Notes under the pieces: generated by a model
The model's input: only the letters and a program-made list of their open reading frames with translations
What the model was told of the DNA's origin: nothing
The model's database searches: none
Origin: a virus
Taxonomy: Duplodnaviria; Caudoviricetes
IMG/VR virus record: IMGVR_UViG_3300012912_000001
Coordinates: 1-58,892 of that record
Strand: one strand, 5' to 3'
Length of the DNA: 58,892 nucleotides
Part shown: in pieces, positions 8,878 to 51,897 of the stretch
How positions within the stretch are numbered: position 1 is the stretch's first letter
Layout: every line of letters starts with the position of its first letter
Translations under genes and position numbers: made by a program

Positions 8878-9084
8878 ATGAAGAAACATAAGATTGGAAA
8901 GATGACACTTCGCAGCGAGGTTGTCAGGAATCTGGACCTTGCAATGATCAGAGGTGGAGACGGATTCACCTCTGCTATTGGCTGCCCATCGGCCTTCGCG
9001 TCCGACTGCTGCACCGTTCAGCCCTCGGCGCTGACCATGGCAGCGGCCCCAGATGGGGGCCGTAACCAGACCTGTTGCAACTGA
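8878..9084 (+). CDS. RiPP/lanthipeptide-precursor-like peptide 1
   Basis: MKKHKIGKMTLRSEVVRNLDLAMIRGG leader, then a Cys/Ser/Thr-rich core (5 Cys); RBS AAAGGGAG. Confidence 0.7.
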   Translation: MKKHKIGKMTLRSEVVRNLDLAMIRGGDGFTSAIGCPSAFASDCCTVQPSALTMAAAPDGGRNQTCCN

Positions 9085-9115
9085 GCCATACCCAAAGACT
9101 TAACGAGGAGTGCTT

Positions 9116-9478
9116 ATGGCGACACCGACATCAGTTACGATCCCTCCTGCCCTCATCGACTACGAGAGCATGGAGCTCGCCGAGATGACCGATGCCGGTG
9201 TCGGTATCCGGGCGCGCCCGCCGGCGCTCACCATTCGCTCGATGGTGCTGCGGGCTCTACGCGCCCAGCTCGAGTCAGGGCCGTTCCTCGCCGCCTTCGA
9301 CGCCGGGCTCCTCGACGCGCACGACGAGGAGCCGCGTAATTCGGACCGCATCTCCATCGTCTTCGGCGAGCGCCCACTCGGGCCTAGAGCGCTCACGGTA
9401 CCGGTTCCCTACACGACGCTGGCCCAGGACTGCATCTCGTGGCTGGCCCGCATGCGACAGGCGAGGGGCGAGCGATGA
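9116..9478 (+). CDS. Hypothetical protein
   Basis: RBS GAGGAG. Confidence 0.5.
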   Translation: MATPTSVTIPPALIDYESMELAEMTDAGVGIRARPPALTIRSMVLRALRAQLESGPFLAAFDAGLLDAHDEEPRNSDRISIVFGERPLGPRALTVPVPYTTLAQDCISWLARMRQARGER

Positions 9479-9665
9479 GATTCAAGTTCCTGATTGATCC
9501 TCCGTCACATCCGGACGATGTTGACGTCGACGTGTCGGAGTTCAGTGGCCCGGCCATCTGTCGGGCCAAGACCAGACCTATACCAGCGCAGCACATGCAG
9601 GCCATAGCGGAGCTGGCCGAGCTGGGGTTCGCCCCGGCGGCGATCGTCCGCAAGGAGAAACTGAA

Positions 9666-9923
9666 ATGACCGGTGTGGAAATCGACAATGAAATCGACGC
9701 GAGCATAGCTCGCATGAAGACCTCAGCGGAGCGCATGTTGTCGATGTGCGGAGGCGATGCCGAGGCTGCTATCACCGCCGGGCTCGGAGCCGTGCTCATC
9801 ATCGCGCATGGCGTCACACCCGCCGAGCGCACCATCGGTGACATTATCGCGTCGCTCCGCGAGTACCACTCGAGGCTCGCTCGACTCCCTGCTGTCGTGC
9901 AGGCAACCGGAGTCGCGTCGTGA
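9666..9923 (+). CDS. Hypothetical protein
   Basis: RBS AAGGAG; ATGA coupling. Confidence 0.5.
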   Translation: MTGVEIDNEIDASIARMKTSAERMLSMCGGDAEAAITAGLGAVLIIAHGVTPAERTIGDIIASLREYHSRLARLPAVVQATGVAS

Positions 9924-10333
9924 CCCCTGGCAGGCTCGAGCGCAGTCGCAAGACGACGCGTAACATCCGCGTCCCGACCGTCAAGTGCGACTGCCAGGAA
10001 TGCGTCGAGCTCAGAGCGAGGTCCGACGTGGACGAGCAATGCGCCAAGGCAGAGACCGTATGAGGCCGAGGCCGGTGCGCCTCATGGCCGGAGAGCACGT
10101 CGTGGCCGTCGCTCCTGAATTCGCTCAGGGTCCGGGATGGTCCAACCGGCCGCTCACCATCATCGTGAGCGACAGCGACGGAAAGCTGCGGAGCGAGTGC
10201 CTGCAGCCAGATGAGCAGGGCACAGAAATCGGCCTGCTCTTCGCAACGTGCGCCAGCGCCCACTCCGCGATGCGTGAGGCGGTGGAGAGGCGTATCGCCG
10301 GAGGTGGTGGAGGTCGAAAGAGAACCAGGCCAG

Positions 10334-10363
10334 GTTGACAACGTCAACAGCGGTGCCTATGGT
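10334..10363 (+). promoter_or_regulatory. Promoter/operator
   Basis: GTTGAC-AAC-GTCAAC; TTGACA-N17-TATGGT; ATG at 10370. Confidence 0.75.
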
Positions 10364-10369
10364 CTGGGC

Positions 10370-10768
10370 ATGCCCACACCAATCTCTCCCGCGGTTGCCT
10401 TCGCTGCCACTCATCAGCCTCGATTCGAGACGAGGGTCGAGGAGATTCTCGAGTACGTCAACCAGTGCATCGTCGACGCGATGGAGCGTCGAGACGACGG
10501 TCCCATCCAGGTCCCCACCACCCGCAGCGGGTGGAGCGTCCAGGATCTGGAGACCGCCGCGGACCATTTCCGTGCTGTTGGATGGCGCGTCACCTCCGGC
10601 GTTGGAGGTGTCACGTTCACCCTCGACTACCCGCCGCAGTTGGCAGCTGACGCTGCCCGCGCTGAGCAGGCCGCCATCTACGCTCCGCGTCCAGGCGAGC
10701 CGACGATGCTCGAGTACGAGCGCATGGCGCAAGACGATCGGATTCTCGACCGGTCCCGCCGCCGCTAG
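10370..10768 (+). CDS. Hypothetical protein, probably leaderless
   Basis: ATG 6 nt after the -10. Confidence 0.6.
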   Translation: MPTPISPAVAFAATHQPRFETRVEEILEYVNQCIVDAMERRDDGPIQVPTTRSGWSVQDLETAADHFRAVGWRVTSGVGGVTFTLDYPPQLAADAARAEQAAIYAPRPGEPTMLEYERMAQDDRILDRSRRR

Positions 10769-11088
10769 AACGGCACTTCAAGTGCGCGCAGCGCGTCCTC
10801 GACGCTGCGCACGATGACCGGTGGAATACCGGTCCACCTCTTCCACCACTGGACCTGCGCCGGGGTTAGCTCCCTGTAGCGCGGGTCCTCGTCGTCGTGC
10901 TTGCCCTTGATCGGTCGGGCGCGCGTACCGTTGATGTCCTTGACCTCGACGAGCAGCAGCCTGCCCTCGTACTCCACGACGAGGTCAGGCACCCCACTGC
11001 CTTCAAGCTGAGCCACAGCGGCGCCCTTTGCGCGCAAGGCATCGATGATGGCGCGCTCATTCACGTCGCGTCGTCTGGCGAATTTCAT
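10765..11088 (-). CDS. VRR-NUC-like / PD-(D/E)XK nuclease (possible resolvase)
   Basis: RRDVNE..IIDALR..G, GVPDLVV, LLVEVK, LTPAQ..W. Confidence 0.8.
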   Translation of the reverse strand: MKFARRRDVNERAIIDALRAKGAAVAQLEGSGVPDLVVEYEGRLLLVEVKDINGTRARPIKGKHDDEDPRYRELTPAQVQWWKRWTGIPPVIVRSVEDALRALEVPF

Positions 11089-12443
11089 CTCAGCGTCATG
11101 GTAGGCCCGTGCCATGACGCGTAGGCGATACCCGGCTCCCCGTTGGAGTTCAGGGAGACGTTTATCTGCGCTTGATTCTTCCATTCTTCATCGCTTGGGC
11201 AGCAACGGCAGTACGTGCTGCTCACGCAGCTGCAGTCGTAGTCGATGCCATTCACCGGCGTCTTGTTGTACTCCACTCCGCGGTAGAGAAACATCACGAG
11301 CCGGGCCACTTCCTCGATGGATCCAGATCCGCGTAAGTCCGAGGGATTCGGCCGCTTGTCCTCGCGATTCTCTACGTTTCGGTTTAGCTGGCTTAGCACC
11401 AAGCAGGCGATGTCAAGCTCCTTGGCGATGGCGAACAACTCGGCGAGGATTTCGCGCAGGGCCTGCTCCTCGTTGAGGGCAGGGTTGCGCTTGACGATCT
11501 GGAGGTAGTCGATGATGGCGAGGGATAGCGTCGGCTCCATCGCCTTGGCGCGGCGGAGTTCTCGCGCGATTTCGGACGCGGTCATCAGCCGGTCGTAGAC
11601 GAGCCAGTTGGTGCGCTCCCGGAACTTCGCCGCCGCCTGTGTCAGACGGCCGATGTCTCCGTTGTTGACCGTGCCCTTGCGTAGGGCGTCGATCGGCACA
11701 CCGCTGAATCTCGTGATCCCGCGGTCGGCGTACACGCTCTCGGAATCCTCGAGAGTGAACACCGCGACGCCGAGTCCGGCGACGCTCGCGGTCCCGGCGA
11801 TGGTCAGCGCCGCGGAGCTCTTACCCATCTTCGGTCGTGCGGCGATAACGCTGATGACTCCACGGGGCAGGCCGCCGATTTTCACGTCCAGCGCGACGAT
11901 GCCGGTGGGGACGAGCACGGACTTCCCGGCCTGCTCCCCGAGCTGCTTCCAGCGCGCCGCTACAGCCTGTGCCATCGTGCGCGGCTTGGCCGCGTGCCCG
12001 CGCCGCGCGACCTTCAAGATGCGCTGCTCCGCGTCGGCGAGGTACTCCTTGGGGTCAAGGTCCTCGGCGTAACCCATCTCGGCTACCTCGCCAGCCTCGA
12101 GCATCATGGCTCGCGCCATCGAGTAGCCGCGCACGATGACCGTGTACGCGACCACGTTCGAAGCCGTTGGGCATTGGAGTGTGAGTTCACCAAGAAACGC
12201 CGGACCGCCGACGGCGTCTAGCTTTCCACGGCGCGCGAGCTCAGCCTCGATGGTCACTACATCGATGGGCATCGATGCAGCCTCGAGTATCCGCATCGCC
12301 TCGAAGACGTGTCGGTGCTTCAGGTCGAAGAAGTCGCCTGGCTCCAGGTCTGGGAGCTCTGCAAGTACCTCCTGGCGGAGCAAGATTCCGCCGATGATGG
12401 ACGCTTCTGTTTCGATGGAATGAGGAAGCCTGCGCGCCTTCAC
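11085..12443 (-). CDS. dnaB: Replicative DNA helicase, DnaB-like
   Basis: PHSIETEASIIG N-terminus, AARPKMGKS Walker A, IIDYLQ, LSQLNR, DLRGSGSIE; GTG start coupled to the upstream stop. Confidence 0.93.
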   Translation of the reverse strand: MKARRLPHSIETEASIIGGILLRQEVLAELPDLEPGDFFDLKHRHVFEAMRILEAASMPIDVVTIEAELARRGKLDAVGGPAFLGELTLQCPTASNVVAYTVIVRGYSMARAMMLEAGEVAEMGYAEDLDPKEYLADAEQRILKVARRGHAAKPRTMAQAVAARWKQLGEQAGKSVLVPTGIVALDVKIGGLPRGVISVIAARPKMGKSSAALTIAGTASVAGLGVAVFTLEDSESVYADRGITRFSGVPIDALRKGTVNNGDIGRLTQAAAKFRERTNWLVYDRLMTASEIARELRRAKAMEPTLSLAIIDYLQIVKRNPALNEEQALREILAELFAIAKELDIACLVLSQLNRNVENREDKRPNPSDLRGSGSIEEVARLVMFLYRGVEYNKTPVNGIDYDCSCVSSTYCRCCPSDEEWKNQAQINVSLNSNGEPGIAYASWHGPTMTLR

Positions 12444-12838
12444 CCGCGCCGCTCTGCGCGCTCTGCGGTGACCCCAAGCCACGCCAGCCGTCGCTCGAAC
12501 AGCCTCGTCTTGGCCTCCGGCGACAGCCCTTCCATGCAAGGACCGCCAGCCTTCATCCCCGGGAAGAAGTTCGTCTCGAGCTCGTCCCAGAGCTGGCCGT
12601 AAAGCCAGCCGTCGCACTGGAAGTGCATGCGAATCTCGACGCACGACAAGCAGGTCGTGTACTCCGACCAGACAGAAGAGTCGTACCCCATCATCGTCAC
12701 GTACTCGTACGTCGAGCCCGGTGCGATGAGTTCGCGGCACTCATCGCACCGGTGCTCCTTCCGTGCCTTTCGGCGCAGGGTCCTCGATACCCTGGCGGTC
12801 TCGTCGCAGCCAGACAAAGGGCAGCACGTCATCGCCAT
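12440..12838 (-). CDS. Zinc-finger hypothetical protein
   Basis: RKARKEHRCDEC...TCLSC. Confidence 0.65.
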   Translation of the reverse strand: MAMTCCPLSGCDETARVSRTLRRKARKEHRCDECRELIAPGSTYEYVTMMGYDSSVWSEYTTCLSCVEIRMHFQCDGWLYGQLWDELETNFFPGMKAGGPCMEGLSPEAKTRLFERRLAWLGVTAERAERRG

Positions 12839-12964
12839 GTGACACCTCCGGTGAGTGCGAGCGCCGCCGCCGTCCTCGCGATGACCCGACGTGCGCTCGC
12901 CGAGAGGGCCGACTTGTCGCCCTTCCGCTTGGCCTTCGGATTCGGAGGCATATCAGGGAGCGCT

Positions 12965-14071
12965 CTAGTTCTCATGGGACGGCTCCTCTTCCCAAATCCG
13001 CTTGCCCTCGGTGGCCATCCACTCCTTGACCTCATCGGGCGTCATGATGCGCTTCGACGGGTCAGTGAGCGCTTCCTCGGCCTGCTTCGCCTCTCGCTCC
13101 AGCCTGCGCCGCTCGTTCTCCCGGCCAGTTGACCACTGGTGGGCGATCGACGCCTCCAGGCGTCGCTGCTCCTCTGACCTCGCATCCGCCGCGCTCTTGG
13201 GCTTTGGCCCACGTCTGGCTTCATCCTCCGACATCGCCGCATATTTCGCGAAATTTCCACCCGTGAACACAGCGCCAGTGAACCACCTGTAGTCCTCTTG
13301 CCCACTAACGACGCTAAGCTCACACATGTAGACGGCGTGCAGGGCTTGGATTTCGAGCTGAGCCAAATCATCGCTGGTTTGCGTTATGGCGACGTGTTGT
13401 TCGAGGTCCGATATCAGGCCGCGGTCGAAGGCCAAAAGTGGAATGTAGCGCTTCCTGAGGGCCTTCGCGGCCCTTTGGCGTCCTTCCTCAAGGGCCTGCC
13501 TGATGGTCTTCCTGAATTGAGAGCGCTTCCCCCGGAGGTCGGAGGTCGTCGAGTCTATTGGACTGACCGATTTATCCGGAGAGAGTGCGGGCGGACCATC
13601 TCGGAGCTCCCTCTCGGGGTCTTGATCGGAGGTCGGAGGTCGGAGGTCAGTCGCGTGGGTCTCGCGAATATTCTCGTGGGTCTCGCGTGGGTCTCGCGAA
13701 TCTGTCTCAACTAAAGGTTTTTGTTCGCAATCAGCCTCATCTCGGCCGGGCATCCTAGCCTTTCCTGGTCTGTCCACCTTCTGGTGCTTGTCCCAACCCG
13801 CGATATGTAGGTATGGCTGCCCCCGAACAGCATACGGAACCAGGAGCGTGACACCCGCGAGAGTCTCGAGAGCTTTCGCGACAGTCTCGCGTGACTCACT
13901 CGCACCCCACACTATCTGTCCGCGTATGTAGTCAGGATCCCCACGTAGGTTCCCGTAGTCGTCCGCGATCAGCCAGCTCCCCACGAACAGCCTGAACTCG
14001 AGGTGCGTCAGCGCCGCGCACTTTGAGTCGTCAAGGATCTCCGGCTTGATGCTGCGGATCCTGCCGGCCAT
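12965..14071 (-). CDS. Phage replication initiator
   Basis: N-terminal RIRSIKPE..D, ADDYG, WDKHQKVDRP; upstream of dnaB; internal repeats. Confidence 0.75.
   Translation of the reverse strand: MAGRIRSIKPEILDDSKCAALTHLEFRLFVGSWLIADDYGNLRGDPDYIRGQIVWGASESRETVAKALETLAGVTLLVPYAVRGQPYLHIAGWDKHQKVDRPGKARMPGRDEADCEQKPLVETDSRDPRETHENIRETHATDLRPPTSDQDPERELRDGPPALSPDKSVSPIDSTTSDLRGKRSQFRKTIRQALEEGRQRAAKALRKRYIPLLAFDRGLISDLEQHVAITQTSDDLAQLEIQALHAVYMCELSVVSGQEDYRWFTGAVFTGGNFAKYAAMSEDEARRGPKPKSAADARSEEQRRLEASIAHQWSTGRENERRRLEREAKQAEEALTDPSKRIMTPDEVKEWMATEGKRIWEEEPSHEN
13626..13725. repeat. Iteron-like repeats within the initiator gene (putative origin)
   Basis: TCGGAGG x3; TCGCGTGGGTCTCGCGAAT at 13651 and 13683 plus a partial copy; short AT-rich stretch beside them. 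Confidence 0.55.
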
Positions 14072-14250
14072 TACGCCACCTCATGCTTGGCGACAGCCGA
14101 TGTCACGAGCTCGGCGTGACGCATCGTGCTGCGGATGACCTCGCTCACCGATGTCGCGTGCCGCGTCGCGCGGCTCGTCCAATCGGCGAACTCATTTTGA
14201 GTGACGAGCACTACGACTCGCCGGGATTTGGTAGCTCTCTTTCGTGGCAT
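14071..14250 (-). CDS. Ribbon-helix-helix protein, 59 aa (absent from the ORF track)
   Basis: MPRKRATKSRRVVVLVTQNEFADWTSRATRHATSVSEVIRSTMRHAELVTSAVAKHEVA; TAATG-coupled to the initiator. Confidence 0.65.
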   Translation of the reverse strand: MPRKRATKSRRVVVLVTQNEFADWTSRATRHATSVSEVIRSTMRHAELVTSAVAKHEVA

Positions 14251-14320
14251 GTCACTATTGTTGCCATACCATGTGCGCCTGTGTCAATCACCCACCGAGC
14301 GATGCGGCACACGGTCTTCG

Positions 14321-14350
14321 CTTGACAACGTCAACAGCGCGATGCACGAT
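14321..14350 (+). promoter_or_regulatory. Promoter/operator for precursor peptide 2
   Basis: CTTGAC-AAC-GTCAAC; TTGACA-N17-CACGAT. Confidence 0.7.
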
Positions 14351-14358
14351 GGCCTGAC

Positions 14359-14529
14359 ATGAAGCACCACAAGCGAAGGCTGCAGCTGAATCGAGACACG
14401 GTCGCTGTGCTCACCGGAGACCAGACGCGCCGCGTGCTGGGCGGACGCGACAAGCCGGTAACGACGTCGACCATCACCATCATCACGTGGGACTGTCCGG
14501 GCGTTACGGACACGACCTGCTTCCACTAG
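14359..14529 (+). CDS. RiPP/lanthipeptide-precursor-like peptide 2, 56 aa (absent from the ORF track)
   Basis: MKHHKRRLQLNRDTVAVLTGDQTRRVLGG-RDKPVTTSTITIITWDCPGVTDTTCFH. Confidence 0.75.
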   Translation: MKHHKRRLQLNRDTVAVLTGDQTRRVLGGRDKPVTTSTITIITWDCPGVTDTTCFH

Positions 14530-14728
14530 AAGTGCCGAGCAAGCGCATCCCTCGACCGAAACGCACGTCGTGGAAGACCCACGGGTGGCGACGGATGCGG
14601 TCGAAGACCACGAGGGACATCAACCGTTCGAACGGATTTTGCGTGAACGACAACATGAAGCGCTCACACGGACCAGCGACGCACGGCGTGCGCTGTGAGC
14701 GTTGCCACCTGGTCCACAGGAGGTCAGC

Positions 14729-20461: not shown

Positions 20462-20469
20462 GCCCTCGC

Positions 20470-21985: not shown

Positions 21986-22801
21986 TCACCATGGAATGGT
22001 CCAGCCGAGCGTTTGATAGAGCGTGCGAACCTGTCCGGTCGTGAATCGCGCAGCAGCGCCGCCGAACTCCGCTCCGTAGAGGTAACCGATGTTCCCGGCG
22101 TTCGTGGTTTGCCCACCGAACGCGGTCATGACGGACGACGCCGGCAGCGTGTACGTGCCGATGAACGCGTCCTGGTCGGTGAAGATGGCTGACACCGAGC
22201 CGGTGTTGTTGACCTGGATGCCGACGGGCATCCGACGACCGCGCGGGTCTGTCGCGAGGTCGGCGGACGCCCCGAACACGGCCCGCAGCTTCCCAGTCGT
22301 GTTGAACCTGCAGTCCGCCTGAGCGGACTTGGTCATGACGTCACGAACGCTAGCCGGTGACCCGACGGGGATGTCGAGGTAGCCGAGGAGGAAGACATCC
22401 GTCGTGTTCGGGTTGTTTGCCGTGGTCGTGTTGACCCACTTTTGGTTCGCCGTGCCGTCGACGCACTTCAGACAGAAGCGAGACCAGCCAGTTGCTGCCT
22501 GCCGATAGAGATGACCGGTGCCCGTCATCGTCAGCGTGACGGTCCCGATGCTGTCGGCGAGGTTGCCGCTCGCCTCTTGCATGTTCCACGTGGAACCCGG
22601 GTTGCCGGTGGCGAGCCCGGCTGCCGCCATGAGCGCCGTCCACTCCGCCGCGTTCGCGGGGCAGTAGATACCGCTCGTGCCGTCGCGGGTGACGCCGGGG
22701 ATGCCGCCACCGCTCACGGGCGCAGCCAGCTCGTCAGCGTCAACCCCGACGCCGATACCGACGCGTGGCCCGACGCGCGGCCCCACGCGTGGTCCTATCA
22801 C
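21986..22801 (-). CDS. Putative virion protein, LamG/concanavalin-like fold
   Basis: W.MQEASGNLADSIG motif; N-terminal (GPRV)3. Confidence 0.55.
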   Translation of the reverse strand: MIGPRVGPRVGPRVGIGVGVDADELAAPVSGGGIPGVTRDGTSGIYCPANAAEWTALMAAAGLATGNPGSTWNMQEASGNLADSIGTVTLTMTGTGHLYRQAATGWSRFCLKCVDGTANQKWVNTTTANNPNTTDVFLLGYLDIPVGSPASVRDVMTKSAQADCRFNTTGKLRAVFGASADLATDPRGRRMPVGIQVNNTGSVSAIFTDQDAFIGTYTLPASSVMTAFGGQTTNAGNIGYLYGAEFGGAAARFTTGQVRTLYQTLGWTIPW

Positions 22802-23211
22802 TCCTTGCCTCCGGCCTGGATGCGCATGACCCCCTGCGTGGTGCAGACGACCTGTGCGCGCAGCATCAGGCTCCCCAGATTACCGAGGTGCACGGAGCAT
22901 CCACCGGCGGTTCCGCCTGGAATGTTGATTTGGAGGTTGGTGTTCGTGCCGGCGCCGGCGGGGGAGAACGCGACGTAGACGCCGCTCGTTGGGTTCTCCT
23001 GAATCCAGTCGCCGGCCGTCGTTGACGAGATGGCCACCTCGGGGAACTCGGAGCTCCAGAACGTCACCGTTCCGACGAGCGCGGCATCCCATTGGATGTG
23101 GACGTGCTGGATGAGCGACGCATCGCCACCGAGCCCATAGTTGGCGGGGGTTCCGCCGGTAACGGTCTGGAGACCCTGCTTCGCGGGATTCGGCTGTCGG
23201 ATTTGCGTCAT
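22798..23211 (-). CDS. Putative virion protein
   Basis: Beta-rich; lies in the late operon. Confidence 0.5.
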   Translation of the reverse strand: MTQIRQPNPAKQGLQTVTGGTPANYGLGGDASLIQHVHIQWDAALVGTVTFWSSEFPEVAISSTTAGDWIQENPTSGVYVAFSPAGAGTNTNLQINIPGGTAGGCSVHLGNLGSLMLRAQVVCTTQGVMRIQAGGKE

Positions 23212-26200
23212 CTATTTGCCCTCATGTCAAGGGAGGTCATGGCTTGCTGGCCGAGTTGGATGGGCCCGGTCAATCCGGGGGCTCCCTGCGGAGGGGGCTG
23301 GCCTGGAGCTCCGGGCTGCGCGCCGGAAGCGCCTGCGGCCGGGGCGGCGAGGTAGGCGAGGCTCTGCGGCTGCATCGATGGATGCACCGGGATGCGGTAC
23401 ATGATGCTGATGGCGATCTGCCGCGCGTATGGGAGCTTCGCCTGCATCTGCGGCGCGGTCTTGATGAGCATCATCTGCGCGAGCTTGAACAGCTCGGGGT
23501 AGACGTATTGGAGCGTCTGCGCGCCCTCGCGCGAGAAGTGCCCCTTGGCTAGGTCTTCGAGCACCGACACCGGATCTGACACGGCGTGGATGTACCTGCC
23601 CCACTCCTCGAGCGCTGCCTTCGATGGGCGCCACTTTCCGTCGCCGGGAAGCATCCCTGGGGGGAGGACCGGCTTGGGCGCCTTGCTCGCGATGAAGTCG
23701 ATGCCGCGCTTCACCTGCGCGGCGATAGCACTCTGCAGCTCGGCGTCTGCGGTCTGGTACCGGTCGCCGATGGCGTGCTCGATGGCGCCCGGCTGCTGCG
23801 CGCGTGCAATCTCGTCCATGCGCGCGTGATAGAGCGCGGCGAGGTCTTTCGTCTTCTTCGCGTCCCCGCCAGGGAACAGCGAGTACCCGAGCGTGACGGC
23901 GGGTCCGGCGGAGACCTCGGAGACCTTACGAGCGCCGCGTCCGGCCTTGGAGAGGAGGGCCTGCGTGGCGCCGTTGATGCGGTCCTGCGTCTCCGACATG
24001 CGCTGTGCGATGAGCGCTTCGGTGGAGCGACCGACGGAGCCGCCCTTGCGCCCTAGGATGCCGAGCACGGCGCGCGCCTTGAGCACGGCCCCGAGCACGG
24101 GGCCTATGAGGGGAATCCGGCTGAGCATCGGCGTGTGCACGCCCATGGCCCCCAGTAGCTCGAGTGCGGTGCCGGCGTCGGCGGCAGCACCAAGCACCCC
24201 GCCGCCACCCGGCGCGGCCTTGGCCGCCTTCTTGGCGCCACGCGCCTGCGCCTGCGCGTGATCGCGCGCAAGCGCCATGTTGACTTCCGCGTCCGGCTCG
24301 ACGACGGTCGCGTCCGGTCCACCGAATGCCGCTCTGACCTTGGGCGTCTTTCCTCTCGGCTCGACGATGGTCGTGTCGGGCAAGGCCGGTCTGCTCGCTA
24401 GCCCGTCCGCCAAGACGCGAGCGCGGATGCCGGGGTCAACCGCCGTGCGCTCTAGGTCGTCCGCCGCCCGTGCCGCGCTGGCCGCCATGCGGTCTGCTTG
24501 TCGCTGGCTCGCAGTCCGAAGCTTCGACGCCCGGTCGACGGCGGTCCGCGGGGCGTTCGCGCCGAGCAAGTCGGCGACGTCAGCGCTGGCCTGCTCGTGG
24601 TCGCCGATGATTTTCGCTGCGCGCTCCAGCGACGGCCCCATGTCGACGTTCTTGCCGGTTCGCTTCTTCAGCAGGCGCTCGATGGCGGCGTCGTCGGCCA
24701 CGCGCTGCATGTCCTCGGGCATGAGGCTGGACACCTTGGTCTTCGCCTCGTACGTCGCGAGCGCGTCCATATCGGGCTCGCCCAAGATGCGAGACAGGCC
24801 CTCGTATGAGGTCACCGTCCCCTTCTTGCCTGTGCTCGCGTCCGGCGTTGGGCTCTGATTCGGCACCGCGTTGCGCAGGGCCTCTTCGAGGTCGATGCGC
24901 TTGGGGTTCGCCGCCTGCTCCGCTGCGCCCATGTCCGATGCCGCGAAGTTCTTCGCGTTCGCCTTGCCTCGGAAGTGCTCGGCAGCAGCCTCGGTCTTCG
25001 CGGCCTTCTCCGCGACGTACTTCTCTTCAGCGGGCTTCGAGATGGACTTGAAGCTCTTGCCTTCGTCGAGCGCGCTCTTTGTGCCCGAGAGCAGCGCCAT
25101 CAGGTCGTCGTCAGTCGTGACGGCGGCGGTCTTCGCCGATGGGCCAGCGTCGGCTGCGAACTGCGTCGGTCGGCCACCGAGGGCGCGGAGGTCTGGCTCG
25201 GCGACCGGAGCTGTGGGCGTCGATAACTCGGCGGCGATGGATTCGGGCATCGCCTTGCCAGCAAGGGCGGATAGGTCTGCTGCCGGCTCCAGCGCCGCGC
25301 CCTTCGGAGCTTGAGCCTTGAGCCACTCGGCGCGCTCATGAAGCCCCTGCTTGACTTCCTTCTTCGCCGCCGCGCTGAGCCCGGAATCGTCGACCATCCG
25401 GTCAATCGTCGGTCGAAGCTGCTCATACTTCCGGGCGAAGTCTACGAGCTGGCGGTCGATGTCCTTCTCCGATAGGGAGCCGAAGACCTCGCCGGATGGC
25501 TGGCTCGGGTTGCGCATGGTCTCGAGTTCGCGGACCGGTGCTGCGAAGTCCTTCCGGCCGCCCTGAGCGCGGTAGATGAGCGAGCCGCCGTTGTCGATGC
25601 GGTGCACCACCCCGTCGGCATCCAGAAGCATGTTGTCGTACCCGGTGCCTACGGCATCCCAGTTCGCGAGCCATGCATCGACGACGAACCCGTCTCCGGC
25701 GTTGGCCGTCGCGAGCGCCTGCGGCGAGGAGGTCTTGCCGGGAAGCTCCCTCGACATCATCGTCCGCTTGCCGGCCTGCTCGACGACTTCCGTTTCCGGG
25801 GCGGACACGCCGAACTCGCGATAGATGCGGTTCGCCAGGTGCTCCACCTCGACACGGTCAGAGCTGCCGCGATAGCTCTTCCCGAACCAGTTGGTTCCGT
25901 TCTCGTCGGTGTACCAGCGGCCGCCCCGCGTTCCGCCGGCGGCGCGTTCGGATGGGGTGAACGCGTGCCGCGGCTGTTCCGCGGCGTCGACGGGCGTGAC
26001 GTCTGCGGGTCCGAACTTGCGCAGCAATTCGTCGGCATCAACGAGTTCAGCCTTCGGCCGCGCTGTCGCCGGGTAGAACTGGATGGCTACCGGTCGATCG
26101 GAGGCGATGGCGGACATGAAGCGGTCAGCGCCGCTGTCGAACTTATAGCCGAACGTGCTGCGTCGGCTGGTCCCGGGGATCGGGTCTCCCAGGACAGCCC

Positions 26201-28976
26201 TCATCTCGATGGCTGGGGTGCTCTCGTCGGACCACGATGGCAAGCTGTCGACGGGCTCGACGTGGAGCTTCTTTCCGATGAACTGGCTCGGCCGCAGGAC
26301 GAAAACGTGCTCGCGCGGGTTCAGCCCATCGCTTCCGCCGACTTCCGCGGCCTCGGGGACCTGGGTTATCGGGCGAGGCTCGGAGGCGAACTGCTTTTTG
26401 GGTCCGAATTCGATGTTGAAGCCATCCGGGATGGCAGTCGCCTCCGGCGCGGCATCCGGCATGCTCAGCGCGAGCCGAATTGTCTTGGGGCCGGAGGCAG
26501 ACGCCTCTTCGATGCCGGTTACCGTGAACTTCCCGCCGCGTCCGAGAAGAAGCTCGCGCTCCTTCGGGAACTCACTTGGAATGGCGAGCGTCGGGTAGCC
26601 TTCAGGTACGGAGATGTCGAGCTTGATGCCGTTGCTCTGCTCACCGAGGAGCCAGCTGGCGTAGTCGCGGGCTATCTGGTCATCGTATGACGTGGAGACG
26701 AAGCCGGGGTCGACGAAGGAGTCGCCGACTTTCAGATTACCGACGGCCTTGACGGCCGCGGGGTCATGGATTCCTCTGGCCAAGACCATCGGGCGCGGCG
26801 CGGGGGAGCGCGCGAGAGCGTTGTCGAGAGTGACCGCCAAGTCGCGGATGTCGGCGTCTACGGCCTTGAGCGACGCGCCTCCGATGTTGCCGTGAGCGCG
26901 GCGCAGTGCACCGTTGATTCGGGCGTACAACCCGTTGTTGCTATACGACTTGGCGACATCTTGTTCTGCAGGGGAGAGAGACCGCCGAGCTCGCTCGGCC
27001 AGCTCGAGAAACTCGTCCTCTGTGACTCTGCCGCCGCCGGTTGACGAGGGTGGGCCCGAAGAGGGGGCAGAGGGGGCGGCCTCCCCGTTCATGATGGCGG
27101 TCCGACGCTCGCTGATGCGATCCCGGAGCTCGCCTAGGCTCTTCTGCTCCGGCGCATCGGCCGGGTGTGCCTCCATCGCGTTCTCGATGTCGGCGCTCAA
27201 CCTGCCGAGGTCGTCCTCGGACATCCCGCTGATGTCCATGGCGTGGTCGAACTTGGGAGCCGGCGGGGGCTCGACAATCTTCGCCGCCTCGGCTTGGTCC
27301 CAGATGTCGCTGAGCTTGGGGTTCTGCTTGGCCGCGGCGGCCCGCTTGCCGTACGTGTCGCCGAGCTCGAGAGGCGGCGACTCGTGGGCGGGAGGCGTCT
27401 CGACCTTCGGCGTAGCCCGGCGAGCCTTGGGGCCGGCGACTCCGGTCGCGTCGAGCGAGCTCGGCGTGACCCGTCCGCCGCCCAGCGCCGAGAGGTCGGG
27501 CTCTGCAGCGACCGCCGCACGGGCCAGCTCCTCCGGCGTCTTGATACCTCCGACACCGGGCGCGCTGAACTCCCCGACTGGAACACCTTGACGCGTCCCC
27601 ATGCCGCCGCCGAGAGCTGCTTCGAAGTCAGCGAGCGACTGTGGGTCGTCGAGGGCCCCGCCGCCTGCGGCGAGCCAGTCCCCAGATTTGCCGAGGCGAT
27701 TCTCGAGGCCCGCGACCGCTTCTTCCGTCCGGCCTACCCCGCCGCCCCCCGACATCGACTTCTGCGCTTGGTTCGCCGCCGCGGCGAGCTTCTCGCGTGC
27801 CTGGTCATCCTCGAGAGCAGCGAGAGCGAGCTCCCTCGGGGACATGAAGCCATCGCCCTGCCCGGCCGGGGAGAATTCGTCGACTGGAACCCCCGCCTTT
27901 CGCAGGCTCAGCTCGGAGCTTGGCGCCATTCCAGCGAGCTCATCCTCGACGGTGATGAGCTTCCCGATGTCGTCGAGTTGGTCGCCGCCATCGGCTATCC
28001 AGGCCTTGAGCTTGGCCTGGCTCGATTCCAGCCGCTGCGTCGCCTCTGCAAGCGCGGCGGTGTCAGCCGTCGTCGAGGCCTGCTCGACGATAACGTCGGG
28101 CGCGACGCCGCCGAACGCGGTGCGCGTGATGTGCTCGTTGCCCGCTGCAACGCCGGCCTTGGCCTCGTTTTCGGCCAGCTGCTGCCTCGCAGCAGCGAGC
28201 ATCTGATCGCCGTCCGCAACGCTGTCCTTGAGCGCGGTCGTTGCTTCCTGCTGGACGACCTTGCCCGCTTCCTTGGAGATTTCGCTCCGAGGGAAGAGAG
28301 ACCGCGCGCGGACCAACGCAGAGCCGGCGAGGGAAAACGTACCGCCAATTGGGGCGGCGAACAGCGCGCCCTTGCCCATGCCGCCAACGAACCCCTCTGC
28401 CGAGAGCGGCTTGTTCTGGAGCGCGGTCTCGCTGAGGTAGGCGCCGCCGCCGTACAGCGCGCCTTCCGCTGCCGCGCCGGCAGTGGCCGCCCCAGCACGC
28501 GCGAGCGCGCCGGCGCCCTCTCCGGCGAGGCCCGATGAGACGGCGTGGCCGAGCTTCGAGATGGCGCCCGCCGGAGTCGACGCGAGCCCCTTGGCAATGA
28601 GCCCGGCTTCGGCGCCAGCGGAGGCGCCGCCGGTGAACAACGCCGGAGCGAGCGAGCCGCCGAAGTTCCCGACGAACGAGGAAACTGGGTTCTCTTCCTT
28701 GTAGCCCTCGACGGCCTCGCGGCCGCCAAGGCCGCTGATAGCGACGTCGCTGAGACCGGCCGTGAGGCCGCTCAGCGCGCCGAGGCCAGTCGCCTTGACG
28801 GCGCCGCCAACGCCGCCGTAGGTCTCCGCGCGGACGTCCTTGTAGGCGCGCTGGGCCTCCTCCTCGGAGCCTTCCGGCGCGAACCCCTGGGATAGATACG
28901 CGGAGAGGTGCTCCTCGGGGACGCCGTAGGTCCTCCCCTCGGGGCTGACGACGTTGATGGTGCGCGGTTCGGGCAT
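23208..28976 (-). CDS. Giant internal virion/DNA ejection-like protein with ADP-ribosyltransferase and kinase-like domains
   Basis: Gly/Ala-rich hydrophobic N-terminus; ART motifs Y..IN..LR, LARG, FVSTS, ERELLL; kinase-like G..GG, FGK, E.LA..IY, DAWLANWD, DN, RIDNG. Confidence 0.8.
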   Translation of the reverse strand: MPEPRTINVVSPEGRTYGVPEEHLSAYLSQGFAPEGSEEEAQRAYKDVRAETYGGVGGAVKATGLGALSGLTAGLSDVAISGLGGREAVEGYKEENPVSSFVGNFGGSLAPALFTGGASAGAEAGLIAKGLASTPAGAISKLGHAVSSGLAGEGAGALARAGAATAGAAAEGALYGGGAYLSETALQNKPLSAEGFVGGMGKGALFAAPIGGTFSLAGSALVRARSLFPRSEISKEAGKVVQQEATTALKDSVADGDQMLAAARQQLAENEAKAGVAAGNEHITRTAFGGVAPDVIVEQASTTADTAALAEATQRLESSQAKLKAWIADGGDQLDDIGKLITVEDELAGMAPSSELSLRKAGVPVDEFSPAGQGDGFMSPRELALAALEDDQAREKLAAAANQAQKSMSGGGGVGRTEEAVAGLENRLGKSGDWLAAGGGALDDPQSLADFEAALGGGMGTRQGVPVGEFSAPGVGGIKTPEELARAAVAAEPDLSALGGGRVTPSSLDATGVAGPKARRATPKVETPPAHESPPLELGDTYGKRAAAAKQNPKLSDIWDQAEAAKIVEPPPAPKFDHAMDISGMSEDDLGRLSADIENAMEAHPADAPEQKSLGELRDRISERRTAIMNGEAAPSAPSSGPPSSTGGGRVTEDEFLELAERARRSLSPAEQDVAKSYSNNGLYARINGALRRAHGNIGGASLKAVDADIRDLAVTLDNALARSPAPRPMVLARGIHDPAAVKAVGNLKVGDSFVDPGFVSTSYDDQIARDYASWLLGEQSNGIKLDISVPEGYPTLAIPSEFPKERELLLGRGGKFTVTGIEEASASGPKTIRLALSMPDAAPEATAIPDGFNIEFGPKKQFASEPRPITQVPEAAEVGGSDGLNPREHVFVLRPSQFIGKKLHVEPVDSLPSWSDESTPAIEMRAVLGDPIPGTSRRSTFGYKFDSGADRFMSAIASDRPVAIQFYPATARPKAELVDADELLRKFGPADVTPVDAAEQPRHAFTPSERAAGGTRGGRWYTDENGTNWFGKSYRGSSDRVEVEHLANRIYREFGVSAPETEVVEQAGKRTMMSRELPGKTSSPQALATANAGDGFVVDAWLANWDAVGTGYDNMLLDADGVVHRIDNGGSLIYRAQGGRKDFAAPVRELETMRNPSQPSGEVFGSLSEKDIDRQLVDFARKYEQLRPTIDRMVDDSGLSAAAKKEVKQGLHERAEWLKAQAPKGAALEPAADLSALAGKAMPESIAAELSTPTAPVAEPDLRALGGRPTQFAADAGPSAKTAAVTTDDDLMALLSGTKSALDEGKSFKSISKPAEEKYVAEKAAKTEAAAEHFRGKANAKNFAASDMGAAEQAANPKRIDLEEALRNAVPNQSPTPDASTGKKGTVTSYEGLSRILGEPDMDALATYEAKTKVSSLMPEDMQRVADDAAIERLLKKRTGKNVDMGPSLERAAKIIGDHEQASADVADLLGANAPRTAVDRASKLRTASQRQADRMAASAARAADDLERTAVDPGIRARVLADGLASRPALPDTTIVEPRGKTPKVRAAFGGPDATVVEPDAEVNMALARDHAQAQARGAKKAAKAAPGGGGVLGAAADAGTALELLGAMGVHTPMLSRIPLIGPVLGAVLKARAVLGILGRKGGSVGRSTEALIAQRMSETQDRINGATQALLSKAGRGARKVSEVSAGPAVTLGYSLFPGGDAKKTKDLAALYHARMDEIARAQQPGAIEHAIGDRYQTADAELQSAIAAQVKRGIDFIASKAPKPVLPPGMLPGDGKWRPSKAALEEWGRYIHAVSDPVSVLEDLAKGHFSREGAQTLQYVYPELFKLAQMMLIKTAPQMQAKLPYARQIAISIMYRIPVHPSMQPQSLAYLAAPAAGASGAQPGAPGQPPPQGAPGLTGPIQLGQQAMTSLDMRANR

Positions 28977-41531: not shown

Positions 41532-41566
41532 GTGCGTGGTTCCTTAGGGTGTGATGTGTTGCTGCA

Positions 41567-47951: not shown

Positions 47952-48501
47952 TCAGCCCTGCTTGGTCGCCTCGCGGCTCAAACGCGCCAGCGCTGCGCGG
48001 TATGCGTCCTGCGCCACCGAGAGCTTGGCGGTAGCGTCGCCCTGCACACGCGCGAGCTCCGCCGCCGCAACACGAAACGCCTCATACGCATCGCGCTCAT
48101 CGCCGATGAGCAGCGTGTGCGGCGCAGACGAGACCACGTCAGGCGGGTCATCGACCACAGGTACGTCGACCGTCGTATGGCGCTCGAAGTGCCTGCGCAT
48201 CGCGTCTTCGGCCTGAGTCACTTCGGACCCTCCCCGGGCAGCGGCTCGGACGGACCTATGTTTCGTCCCAGCACATACCGCTCGTGCCAATTCGAACCCT
48301 TCAGGATGACATCCAGGGCTTCCAGCGCCTCGTCGACGCTTTTGGATGCAGATGCGGAGGCTTTCTTGTAAGCCTCGTTGGCTTCAGTTACGTCCCGGTC
48401 GGCCATGGCCTGACCGACGATAGCCGACTGCCTATCGGTGCAGGCTTGGTAAAGCCGCCGTAGCGCGCCCACGGTCGTGGTCACCACCTCGTCCTCGATA
48501 T

Positions 48502-48750
48502 TCACTTGGCCTTCGCTTTCTCGTCGGCGACCCTGAGCCACGTTGCATGCGCGATGTTCGACCACGGCACCACGATGACGCGCGAGATGGGACCCGCCTC
48601 GTACGTGAACTCGAGGCCCATGTCGCCGCGCTCCTTCACGGTCGTCTTGCCGCCGCCAGGGCCGTTGAGCCCGGTGTCGTAGCTCCACGACTCCTGCGCG
48701 AGCGAGCCGAGGGTGACGACCCTGTTGAAGCTGACGAAGTTCAGGCGCAT
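48502..48750 (-). CDS. Hypothetical protein
   Basis: Coupled to groES; VPWSNI motif. Confidence 0.5.
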   Translation of the reverse strand: MRLNFVSFNRVVTLGSLAQESWSYDTGLNGPGGGKTTVKERGDMGLEFTYEAGPISRVIVVPWSNIAHATWLRVADEKAKAK

Positions 48751-49115
48751 CACTGGAGCACCACGGCCTTCCCGTCGGCCCCAAGGATGGGCGTCACGGG
48801 TGACAGGTCGTGCAGGATAGCCAAGCAGGCTGTCTCGCGGATGACGAGTCCCTCCTCGCCATCGTCGAGGGGCACCACGAGCTGGTCGCCCGCCTGCATC
48901 GAGCGAAAGAACACGACCACGTCACCCTTCTTCACATGCAGCGGGACGAGCGCGCCCGTGGTCATGAGCCGACCGGTGCCAGCCTCAAGCACCTCGGCCT
49001 TAAGCCACGGAGTGCCGTCGGTCGCAATCTCCGGAATCCAGAGACCGCCGCGCGTGCGCTGGTTGGTCTCCATGACCTTGACGAGCAAGCGGTCCCCAAG
49101 GAGTTCATACCGCAT
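48750..49115 (-). CDS. groES: Co-chaperonin GroES
   Basis: LGDRLLVK, TRGGLWIP, EVLEAGTG, VKKGDVV, IRE...LAI. Confidence 0.88.
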   Translation of the reverse strand: MRYELLGDRLLVKVMETNQRTRGGLWIPEIATDGTPWLKAEVLEAGTGRLMTTGALVPLHVKKGDVVVFFRSMQAGDQLVVPLDDGEEGLVIRETACLAILHDLSPVTPILGADGKAVVLQ

Positions 49116-49301
49116 CGGTCACCTTGACGATGTAGAGATGGTTGTAGCCGGGCATGGTTAGCTCGCTCTTGGCCTCATCGATGACGTGCAAGGCGACGAG
49201 CCGGGCAGCGTCGTCCATGCTGTTGCGCACGGCAACCGGCCTGTCCTTCCTGGCGCCGTTGTCTTGCATGACCACGTACACGGTCCGCGTCTTGAGTTCG
49301 T

Positions 49302-49742
49302 TCATGACACCTTCACTGGTCGGAGGAACTCGGCGAGCGGCATGTACGTCGCCAAGGGGTAACGAGCACGAAGAAGTGCGCTGTCCGGCCCATCGCTCGT
49401 GCAGACGACGGGCTGGTCTTTCCTGACGCCGGCCTGGAACAGGAGAGCGGTCGCGATGCCGCCTTCCCTGTCGTCGGCTCTCGTGTAGACGTAGTGGACG
49501 ACCGGAATCCCTGCACCCTCGACGAACAGAACCCACCCCATGATGGCGTCCGGGTCATGCGGTCGAGCCCGCACGAGTACCTTCGTGTCCTTGCGGTCGA
49601 GCACAGCGTCGATAAGCGCCGTGAGCTGAGGGCCGCTACGCGCAGACCGATGCCGCTCGTGCGGGTACGTACCGCGCAGGATGCTCTTGTGCCACGTCGA
49701 GGCGACGTAGCTCTGGTCTGAGGCGCGCGGGGCCCGAATCAC
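49302..49742 (-). CDS. GNAT-like acetyltransferase
   Basis: VHYVYT...REGGIATALL acetyl-CoA-binding motif A. Confidence 0.65.
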   Translation of the reverse strand: MIRAPRASDQSYVASTWHKSILRGTYPHERHRSARSGPQLTALIDAVLDRKDTKVLVRARPHDPDAIMGWVLFVEGAGIPVVHYVYTRADDREGGIATALLFQAGVRKDQPVVCTSDGPDSALLRARYPLATYMPLAEFLRPVKVS

Positions 49743-50473
49743 AGGCCAATCCGATGCATGTGCTGAAGTGCCTCGCCTGCACGCCGCTCATGCCAAGCCG
49801 CGGTCTCCTTGGCGTCGAAGCGGTACACGAACTCCACCGGCTTGGGTTCCGGCGGATTCGGCACGAACTCGTACGGCTCCCACACCGTGTAGCGCGTGTA
49901 GATGCTGACGGGTCCACCCGCCATGTCCCATGCGATGAAGTGCCTCGCCTGTACACCGCGCACGACCTTACCGTCCATGGGGCCGCCGACGAAGCGCGCA
50001 GGGATACGGCCGCGCACGACGCTCATGACGAGCGACCCACCTTCGCCATCATCCGAGCGTTGGCGATGCGAGGGTGCACGCCCTCGGCGATGAGCGCGCC
50101 CCACTCAGCCTGCAGAGCATGAAACTCGGACATCGCGCGCTCGTAACACGCATCGCAGACATTCGAACTCGCAGAGCCGCCTCCAGTACGCTCGATGGTT
50201 ACCGGCCTCACATCAGGCCCATCGTGCTCGCAGCCCTGAGCCTGGCACTTCACTTGTCTTCCCCGGCGCAACGCAAGAGGAAGCGCGCGAGGGTCACCGC
50301 AGACATCGCCGGCAGAACGAGCGACACAACCGATGAGCCTGAATTACCATTGCGGCCGTCGCGCGCCATCTGCAGCCAGACGTAATCATCCTCCGCCATC
50401 ACTGCCGAAATCATGGCAGGGTCCACGCCTTCCAGCGTGGAAATGGATATACCCTCTCCTGGTGGTGGCCGGC

Positions 50474-51043
50474 TCATCGCTTCAACTCCAAGAGCGAGAA
50501 CCGCAGCTCCTGCTCCTCATCTTGGGTCATCTGCTTCGCGCCGGTCTTCGCTGCATCGTCGACCGGCCGCGGGTTCATGCTGTTGTAGATGGCGCCGTCG
50601 GGCATGACCTCGTTGCGCGCGAGCAATGAGGCCGCGCGCTTCTCGAGTCGGCCCTCGACGATACGCAGCTCGCGGTCTACCGCGCTGTTGTCGTAGAGCC
50701 CGATGGCACATGGGTGCGCGTCGTACTCGCGCAGCGCCTTCTCCGGGTCGTCGGCCCTGAGGCTGTGCCACTTGCACGCGCACGCCGCCCAGTAGAACTT
50801 GACCTCACCGTCGCTGCCGAATCGCAGCGCCCCAGCTCGGTTCATCTGCTTCGCCTCAGCCAGCTCCGCGCTGACCTCGCCGTCGATGCGGGCCCTGCGC
50901 TTCGCCTGGCGCCGCTTCGTGGAGATGGCGAACGACTTGCGGAGGTTGTCGGCGACCTGCTCTTGTGTCAGATCGGTGTCAAGCTCCACGAAGCGGCCAT
51001 TCTCGGGCTCCTCGACGAGCTCGAGCTTGGGGTCATCGCTCAC
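50474..51043 (-). CDS. Hypothetical protein with Cys/His cluster and C-terminal RFSLLEL
   Basis: GTG start after AAGGAG. Confidence 0.5.
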   Translation of the reverse strand: MSDDPKLELVEEPENGRFVELDTDLTQEQVADNLRKSFAISTKRRQAKRRARIDGEVSAELAEAKQMNRAGALRFGSDGEVKFYWAACACKWHSLRADDPEKALREYDAHPCAIGLYDNSAVDRELRIVEGRLEKRAASLLARNEVMPDGAIYNSMNPRPVDDAAKTGAKQMTQDEEQELRFSLLELKR

Positions 51044-51232
51044 TTGGACTCCTTGGGCAGCGGGTCGGTCACTTGACCTCATCCTCCACGAGCCGACGCT
51101 CGAGCCCCGCCTTGATGGCCACGTCGTCGAGGGCTGCGCCGTCCTCGTGCGGCGTGTAGCCGAGCTTGGCGCGCAGGCGAAGCCGCAGCTCCGGGTCACG
51201 CTCGAGGCGCCTGAACAGCAGACCGGCCTGCC

Positions 51233-51577
51233 TCACAGGCGCCACTCGTCATGTGGTCGAGGGCGCCCAGCGTAGGTCCCGAGACTGATGCGATTCGTCC
51301 GGCTCCAGTGCTTGCGTAGGCGCAGCGCGACGGCCGACTGGTGCGCGAACAGGTCGATGCGTTGCGACGGCGTAAGCTCTCTGAGCTCCTTGTCGTCGCG
51401 CGTCCAATCGGCCTGCGCGTTGAGGAGCGAGTCCAGGGTCACGCCCCAATCCCAGCGGTCTGGCATGCCGTGGCGCGTACCGGTGAGGCCCATCTTGCCG
51501 GCCTCGATGCAGAGCATCGCGTGCCAGGCGCCATCGCATACGGGTAACCTTCGTTCGAGCGTGTCCTGACCACTCAT
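51233..51577 (-). CDS. Hypothetical protein
   Basis: First gene after a minus-strand promoter. Confidence 0.5.
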   Translation of the reverse strand: MSGQDTLERRLPVCDGAWHAMLCIEAGKMGLTGTRHGMPDRWDWGVTLDSLLNAQADWTRDDKELRELTPSQRIDLFAHQSAVALRLRKHWSRTNRISLGTYAGRPRPHDEWRL

Positions 51578-51584
51578 ACGTGTC

Positions 51585-51681
51585 ATCGGAGCACACCTGG
51601 CGGACCGTGTCAACAGCAGGATTCGTGCCGTGGAGCGCAGCGACATGCGCCATGGACATTCCGGTTGACATCGTCTACAGA
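51585..51681. promoter_or_regulatory. Divergent promoter region with operator copies
   Basis: Minus: TTGACA (51613-51608)-N17-TCCGAT. Plus: TGGACA-N17-TACAGA with GTTGAC-ATC-GTCTAC at 51664-51678. Confidence 0.55.
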
Positions 51682-51690
51682 CATGACGAC

Positions 51691-51897
51691 ATGAAAAAAT
51701 CCATCAGCAAGTTGTCGCTCTCCTTGGAGAGCGTGAGGATTCTCAGCGCGCCTCAGCTTCGGCTCGCGGGCGGAGCCCAAGCCATAGAGACCTGGCTCAT
51801 CGAGTGCTACACGACCGGGTGCACCTGGACTGACTTCGAGGGTGGATGCATGCCCTCCTACCAGGACACCTGCTACTCAGTCAACGCTCAGTGTTGA
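51691..51897 (+). CDS. RiPP/lanthipeptide-precursor-like peptide 3
   Basis: MKKSISKLSLSLESVRILSAPQLRLAGG-AQAIETWLIECYTTGCTWTDFEGGCMPSYQDTCYSVNAQC. Confidence 0.75.
   Translation: MKKSISKLSLSLESVRILSAPQLRLAGGAQAIETWLIECYTTGCTWTDFEGGCMPSYQDTCYSVNAQC

Follow-up and report, generated by a model that had tools for sequence, protein, structure and literature searches.

Why should a phage carry genes for the precursors of RiPPs, peptides that are made on the ribosome and modified after translation, and none of the enzymes that would process them? The question is raised by a phage (Duplodnaviria; Caudoviricetes) known as the IMG/VR virus record IMGVR_UViG_3300012912_000001, whose 58,892 bp were analysed in full and are called the window throughout. 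The original prediction, made from the letters alone, had singled out in it three small open reading frames (ORFs), here P1, P2 and P3, as dispersed lanthipeptide-like precursors with one leader and unrelated Cys-rich cores, each behind a palindromic phage promoter and with no maturation enzyme on the phage, and had read them either as substrates for host enzymes or as decoys that titrate them. The genes, the leader, the cores and the absence of enzymes are borne out by the work presented here; a promoter in front of every ORF is not. On balance we favour the view that P1–P3 are precursors depending on trans-acting host machinery of the lanthipeptide type, with the conserved cores as the active products.

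Results

Three peptides with one leader and unrelated cores

P1, P2 and P3 are present where they had been placed, on the + strand, and translate as claimed (Table 1). Alignment of their first 27–29 residues confirmed the common layout, in which Met-Lys and further basic residues are followed by L/M-x-L-x-[S/R/L]-x5-L and a Gly-Gly end; M1, K2, L11, V16, L19, R25 and G26-G27 (P1 numbering) are invariant. The LxLxKx5L spacing is kept in 3/3 peptides, with K replaced by S, R or L, as is the double glycine (3/3), and these leaders are of the hydrophilic GG type and are not Sec signals. According to the motif description in Walker et al. (2020; PMC7268733), class I LanAs of Bacteroidetes carry the LxLxKx5L motif, many of them end in Gly-Gly and a C39 protease is often found in the cluster, which agrees with the class I LanA leader type that had been proposed for the three ORFs.

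Behind this leader the cores are mutually unrelated and rich in Cys, Thr and Ser, also as predicted. Of their 108 residues, 12 are Cys (1% in the proteome of the phage; p ~9e-10) and 25 are Ser or Thr (12% in the phage proteins; p ~1e-3); the potential ring partners are 5 Cys and 8 Ser+Thr in P1, 2 and 9 in P2, and 5 and 8 in P3. If the peptides of the related phage G001 (below) are included, three of the six phage cores hold 5 Cys and one holds 3; with an odd number of Cys, thioethers are a better fit than disulfides alone.

Cores are kept more strictly than leaders

G001 is a complete phage of 58,397 bp with terminal repeats, whose terminase is 58% identical to that of the window and which is collinear with it across ~13.6 to 50.8 kb. 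It encodes three further peptides (a, b and c) with the canonical leader of the P1–P3 type and other Cys-rich cores: two of the leaders end in GG and the third in AG, and the cores hold 5, 4 and 3 Cys. None of the three is located at the position of P1, P2 or P3. Failure of related phages to keep the leader while varying the core had been named in advance as a result that would count against the prediction, and G001 has three peptides that combine the kept leader with varied cores. In a second complete phage (G002; terminase 37% identical to the window's) the leader profile searches found no peptide with a P1–P3-type leader.

The six phage peptides were then compared with an index of 5.8 billion proteins, which gave 13 matches among 180 candidates, all of them metagenomic; the 13 include the calls of P3 (P0002) and P2 (P0006) from the window itself. 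Grouped by core, P1 goes with P0004, P2 with P0012 and G001 peptide b with P0001, while peptide a forms a family with P0005, P0008, P0010 and P0011 (P0008 being G001's own record with a shorter start) and peptide c one with P0003, P0007 and P0009; P0013 has the shared leader and a distinct core. An exhaustive P2 search of 1.84 billion representatives added P0014, which shares with the other P2 orthologue, P0012, the core motif ITI[IV]TWDCP..TDTT; the second match of that search, P0015, is a low-complexity repeat protein and was discarded. P1 searched alone returned P0004 as its sole match, identical in 41/41 core residues and in 21/27 leader residues. Scans of IMG/VR with P1, P2 and P3 found no relative, and those with core families B and C found G001 itself only.

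Across 10 orthologue pairs, identity is 167/284 in the leader and 260/317 in the core; the core is conserved at least as well as the leader in nine of the ten, and core families B and C are almost invariant. Within one phage, then, the leader is common and the cores differ; from phage to phage, each core changes less than the leader does. Selection would appear to act on the cores.

The leaders stand out from the background of the window

The six-frame translation of the window, 1217 segments, served as the background for ranking leader hidden Markov models (HMMs). The main HMM, built from 20 leaders from outside the window with the orthologues of P1 and P2 excluded, returned P3 (E 1.6e-5), P2 (E 1.1e-4) and P1 (E 0.027) as the top three segments, every match beginning at the proposed Met, and the fourth-ranked segment has E 1.6. 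A second HMM, made from 11 leaders that all come from bacteria or metagenomes and none from a phage, placed P2 (E 0.0018) and P3 (E 0.0082) ahead of the rest of the 1217; the next segment had E 0.56, and P1 fell outside the first 12. A profile of the P1–P3 leaders themselves is circular inside the window and was therefore applied, in six frames, to 18 related phage loci, where it matched three G001 ORFs (E 1.3e-4, 2.6e-3 and 9.9e-3), the next best match anywhere in these loci having E 2.6. These rankings argue that P1–P3 are real genes and not chance ORFs.

Curated families were also consulted. P2 scores 22.1 bits on NCBIfam NF038153 (lant_leader_L1a, class I lanthipeptide), for which the curated cut-off is 22, and PF28317, a Pfam family that Atlas names Lant_leader_dom, is precomputed for P0012, an orthologue of P2. 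PF28317 also occurs in the Atlas clusters nearest to P2 (0.88) and to P3 (0.86), these scores being leads only. A Pfam search of P1, P2 and P3 themselves found nothing.

The phage encodes no maturation enzyme or exporter

The claim that the phage has no maturation enzyme or exporter of its own was confirmed by a Pfam scan and by six-frame searches. The gene set consisted of 73 ORFs of at least 60 aa, called from GC content at third codon positions (GC3) and covering 87% of the window sequence; LanB, LanC, LanM, radical SAM, YcaO, C39 and ABC are all missing from its Pfam families, and six-frame searches for LanC, LanB-N and C39 were empty at E 1 in the window (G000), G001 and G002. Among the ten ORFs flanking the peptides, no Pfam family was found save a PAPS reductase 3' of P3. 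In double-glycine systems of the class II bacteriocin or pheromone type, the peptide gene has a C39-ABC exporter close by, usually together with one for immunity or for a receptor. Since the phage encodes no processing proteins, the shared leader would be readable only by proteins of the host.

The same leader occurs in bacteria, beside and away from Lan enzymes

The pattern [KR]L[SRH]LNR[EN]TI[RA] was run against 185,579 species genomes and gave 20 candidate stretches, six of them confirmed: one in a Haliangiales metagenome-assembled genome (MAG), two in Cystobacter fuscus genomes and three in Acidobacteriota/Thermoanaerobaculia MAGs. The bacterial carriers found are thus Myxococcota and Acidobacteriota (Bacteroidota were not among the groups searched); a metagenome scan supplied six more leader peptides. 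The original prediction had proposed looking for like leaders beside lan clusters, and these exist. In Cystobacter fuscus Cbf 10 (L031) the leader peptide adjoins a C39-ABC exporter, an HlyD protein, LanC and LanB, and in the second strain of this species pieces of LanC lie 3.7 kb from it; on metagenome contig L040 the peptide is followed directly by LanC and LanB, and on contig L041 it adjoins LanC. Over the 15 loci in hand, Lan enzymes are nearby in four, none was seen among the scanned neighbours in seven, and four were not examined. All enzyme clusters found adjoining like leaders are of the LanC/LanB kind, and the only radical SAM gene seen near such a leader (L042) is of the CofH/MqnC type.

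A Thermoanaerobaculia genome (G009) shows how far precursors and enzymes can be separated. It has 40 matches to NF038153 and 10 to LanC, and 2 of its 22 above-cut-off leaders lie within 10 kb of LanC; for its best-scoring peptides, a tandem group of four included, no Lan, peptidase-containing ABC transporter (PCAT) or other exporter gene was found among the 10 largest neighbouring ORFs scanned. Precursors distant from enzymes are common in bacteria, and because like-leader precursors mostly lie away from the enzymes in Thermoanaerobaculia genomes, an action in trans of host enzymes on phage precursors is plausible.

Two of the bacterial loci deserve separate mention. The tandem group (L045 7358-8936, contig C92 of G009) consists of four L1a-leader peptides with Cys-rich cores and adjoins a SecA-like gene and a gene with the OmdA 'bacteriocin-protection' domain, with no Lan enzyme among the neighbours scanned. 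In the Haliangiales MAG (L029 10001-10216) the same leader precedes a Cys-free, repetitive core rich in Ser, Thr and Gly (GTSVIS repeats), and the peptide adjoins a 1879-aa M36 peptidase/PKD protein; a leader of this type evidently also serves non-lanthipeptide cargo.

Expression signals

The palindromic motif TTGACNNCGTCA, which lies within GTTGAC-N3-GTCAAC, has 10 sites in the window against 0.18 expected. In most copies TTGACA is followed by 17 nt, a TAnnnT-like hexamer, a further 6-8 nt and then ATG or GTG, so that the motif looks like a promoter-operator for leaderless early genes. The original prediction had such a promoter ahead of each of the three ORFs. For P2 this holds: a copy stands directly upstream, with a weak -10 element (CACGAT) that the consensus scan did not call, and the spacing suggests a leaderless or near-leaderless P2 mRNA. 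For P1 it holds indirectly, the 8528 site heading a small ORF (ATG 8564, stop 8728) with P1 starting 150 nt further, which would make P1 the second gene behind this site, with its own Shine-Dalgarno sequence. For P3 it fails, as the one-mismatch motif at 51665 is too close to the ATG for use. G001 has no exact copies of the motif.

One run carries the guessed label of metagenomic RNA-Seq (wastewater) and may consist of DNA; a 151-nt contig from it is identical to 8818-8950, which spans the start of P1, and the P2 region (14141-14674) is uncovered by the contigs of four runs; neither was used as evidence. A contig from another soil run equals 9011-9097 exactly and diverges 3' of P1.

Table 1. 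Peptide genes, expression signals and neighbouring genes, in window coordinates
Feature	Position	Strand	Description
P1	8878-9084	+	68 aa; leader residues 1-27, ending MIRGG; core 41 aa, 5 Cys
P2	14359-14529	+	56 aa; leader residues 1-29, ending RVLGG; core 27 aa, 8 Thr and 2 Cys
P3	51691-51897	+	68 aa; leader residues 1-28, ending RLAGG; core 40 aa, 5 Cys
Listed TTGACNNCGTCA sites	6925, 8463, 8528, 10335, 14322, 51894, 54647, 55264, 58323	both	
Promoter-like site: TTGACA, 17 nt, CATGAT, in the palindromic motif	8528-8556	+	heads a small ORF
Shine-Dalgarno-like AAGGGAG	8866-8872	+	5 nt 5' of the P1 ATG
Motif TTGACAACGTCA (-35-like)	14322-14333	+	25 nt 5' of the P2 ATG
Exact motif	51894-51905	+	overlaps the stop codon of P3; position suits the following gene (ATG 51929), not P3
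Two genes adjoining P3	50474-51646	-	blastp homologues adjoin G001 peptide a

Genes around the peptides and the rest of the genome

The G001 homologues of the pair adjoining P3 lie at 56196-57268 (-), in swapped order and with the peptide on the other strand. Because the genes next to P3 have homologues next to peptide a, the two peptides may occupy a common insertion slot, and the arrangement suggests a hot spot for peptides of this sort. G001 also contains two paralogous genes of unknown function, at 22261-22902 (+) and 3934-4401 (-) (L023 and L022), which are 58% identical over 90 aa, lie each 0.4-0.9 kb upstream of a G001 peptide and have no homologue in the window; they suggest that two of the G001 peptides belong to a duplicated gene-plus-peptide cassette. 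A conserved partner gene was sought and rejected: no gene is common to the neighbourhoods of P1, P2 and P3, and the only repeated association is that of the G001 paralogues with two peptides.

The window is a complete record (direct terminal repeats of 123 bp, completeness rating 100%) with a GC content of ~65%, and the sequencing runs that contain the phage are soil metagenomes. Sixteen Pfam families were recognised among its 73 ORFs, with PHROGs in agreement; they include a P22-like portal, terminase, DnaB, PAPS reductase, RNA ligase, GroES, amidase and an ADP-ribosyltransferase domain. Six-frame searches for a tyrosine or serine integrase came up empty in this phage and in G001, so the window phage looks virulent or at least non-integrating. 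Against the GenBank phage collection, megablast of 8 kb of the window gave zero matches and tblastn of a 587-aa tail protein just 4 weak partial ones, and no close relative was found there. No tRNA genes, sought as a clue to the host, were found in the phage.

Three further genes are worth recording. A 1922-aa protein of the structural module (23208-28976, -) carries an ADP-ribosyltransferase exoenzyme domain at residues 660-835 (Pfam E 3.7e-12); it is possibly a virion protein that is ejected and then modifies targets in the host. The PAPS-reductase-domain gene (52402-53451, +; Pfam E 1.4e-24, PHROG 424) starts ~0.5 kb 3' of P3; no link to the peptides was found, and the family is common in phages. 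A GroES (Cpn10) homologue (48750-49115, -) is kept in G001.

Discussion

The reading favoured here takes P1–P3 as moron-type phage genes in early (+ strand) regions and gives them the following course. Each gene would encode a precursor with a double-glycine L1a, or LxLxKx5L, leader of the kind that Myxococcota, Acidobacteriota and Bacteroidota use in their class I lanthipeptide systems; LanB and LanC of the host, most likely acting in trans, would dehydrate Ser and Thr and join them to Cys, and a host peptidase-containing ABC exporter (C39 domain) would cut after the GG and export the peptide. The working products would be the Cys/Thr-rich cores, since the cores are what selection preserves between phages, and the mature peptide could act as a secreted effector or as a signal during infection. 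From the translation of the genes, through cleavage, formation of thioethers and export, to the host and to what the mature peptide does, every part of this course is inferred from sequence.

Several observations weigh against this reading: (i) The class I assignment of P2 has the support of NF038153 and of the PF28317 annotation of P0012, but P1 and P3 do not match NF038153 even at E 10; P1 is also weak on the main leader HMM (E 0.027). For G001 peptide c, NF038153 gives E 0.12 and the radical SAM-type model TIGR04149 a slightly better E 0.022, and this leader style is not specific to lanthipeptides. (ii) The P3 core has no homologue in the 5.8-billion-protein index apart from the window's own call, and the GC3 of P1 is only 0.64, with P2 at 0.84, P3 at 0.78 and ten long window genes at 0.75-0.88. 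(iii) The cores are anionic (net charge -2 in P1, -1 in P2 and -5 in P3), unlike most pore-forming lantibiotics. (iv) A search for the host with the window terminase gave a single weak match among 401 Myxococcota genomes and none among 401 Acidobacteriota genomes, so that neither LanBC nor a PCAT can be linked to a host; L1a leaders are rare in both groups, occurring above cut-off in 4/151 Myxococcota and 6/151 Acidobacteriota genomes, seed genomes included. (v) No RNA run is listed among the runs that contain the phage. (vi) Without an integrase, the benefit of a secreted peptide is hard to see for an apparently lytic phage.

A rather unlikely alternative keeps the host exporter and drops the lanthionine: a C39-ABC exporter would cut and export peptides that are unmodified or disulfide-bonded, in the manner of class II bacteriocins or pheromones, or that belong to another RiPP class, for example one made by radical SAM enzymes. 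A GG leader is common to several peptide classes, and the failure of P1 and P3 on NF038153, the weak TIGR04149 match of peptide c and the fact that most like-leader peptides in G009 do not adjoin LanC all speak for this account. It sits less well with the recognition of P2 and P0012 by two curated class I leader models, with the Cys counts of 5, 5, 5 and 3 combined with the Ser/Thr enrichment, which fit thioethers, and with bacterial loci in which every enzyme cluster found adjoining a like leader is LanC/LanB and the sole radical SAM protein seen nearby is of the CofH/MqnC type. The anionic charge of the cores, too, is unlike that of typical class II bacteriocins.

We give little credence to the second part of the original prediction, in which the peptides would be leader decoys, made early, that keep LanB or the exporter of the host occupied and thereby switch off a RiPP of the host, such as an anti-phage lanthipeptide. 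Bacteria do use lanthipeptides against phages, as reported for Actinobacteria in a preprint that describes such clusters (10.1101/2024.06.26.600839). The position of the genes in early regions, P2 directly behind an early-type promoter, and the presence of three leaders per genome in two phages would also suit a decoy. For that purpose, however, the leader alone would suffice, yet it is the core that orthologues keep better, in the pairs taken together as well as between P1 and P0004, and three different conserved cores in each phage would be left unexplained. The decoy is thus a poor fit, and the promoter claim fails for P3; the leader type, the absence of enzymes and the association with lan genes are retained.

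Finally, it is very improbable that P1–P3 are non-functional, whether as chance ORFs or as decaying passenger fragments from a host, for although P3 lacks a homologue, P1 has a low GC3, no RNA run is listed for the phage, and a high Cys content is not rare among the small ORFs of GC-rich DNA (the Cys fraction of P1 is reached by 6% of 334), the three are the top leader matches of 1217 segments, each beginning at its Met, P1 and P2 have intact orthologues elsewhere, a related phage carries three more such peptides, and there are expression signals, namely a separate Shine-Dalgarno sequence for P1 and, for P2, a promoter motif at the same distance as in other genes of the phage.

If dependence on host machinery of the lanthipeptide type is accepted, a more far-reaching idea can be put forward tentatively: the phage and at least one relative may parasitise a trans-acting lanthipeptide factory of the host by supplying substrate genes only. 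By joining the host's leader to a conserved core of its own, the phage would have the infected cell make and export phage-designed lanthipeptides, which might keep out rival phages, affect cells nearby or carry signals from one infection to another.

How does this compare with known systems? (i) Class I LanAs (NF038153; PF28317; pinensin-type family) have the same leader layout, spacing and GG end and cores rich in Cys and Ser/Thr. Unlike at class I LanA loci, no LanB, LanC or C39 exporter is encoded by the window phage, whose peptides are known from genes alone. (ii) Prochlorosins of cyanobacteria are made from many dispersed precursors served in trans, within one genome, by one class II synthetase (ProcM). 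The phage peptides resemble them in comprising several precursors with one leader, unrelated cores and genes away from the enzyme, as do those of the Thermoanaerobaculia genomes; they differ in that the substrates sit on a virus and in that each core family is conserved rather than hypervariable. (iii) Ribosomal peptide natural products are also encoded by temperate phages, sublancin on SPbeta among them, and prophages are reported to carry bacteriocin gene clusters (Dragos et al. 2021, as cited in PMC7616364). These prophage clusters are whole sets with enzymes, exporter and immunity, whereas the window phage and G001 carry precursors only and no integrase was found in them. (iv) AimP has a Sec signal, and the gene of its cognate receptor AimR adjoins its own. 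Such arbitrium peptides belong to temperate Bacillus phages (review PMC12360287). P1–P3 share with AimP a short, phage-encoded peptide, a presumed dependence on the host for maturation and a possible role in signalling; unlike AimP they have a GG leader, and the scan of the 73 window ORFs turned up neither a TPR family nor any other resembling a receptor, so that we rejected an arbitrium-like communication peptide as a candidate.

Whole bacteriocin clusters on prophages and anti-phage lanthipeptides are already known; what appears to be new here are precursor-only genes on a phage, and a full-text literature search returned no report of a phage with precursor-only genes tuned to leader-recognising machinery of its host. 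On the more far-reaching idea, these genes would represent a new class of viral auxiliary genes, acting through substrate-only hijacking of a RiPP pathway. If the reading favoured here is true, RiPP pathways with trans-acting enzymes would be exposed to hijacking by substrates of viral origin. Short viral ORFs, which are often skipped by gene callers, would in that case form a reservoir in which new lanthipeptide cores lie, and leader sequences could be used as a marker for predicting the hosts of uncultured phages.

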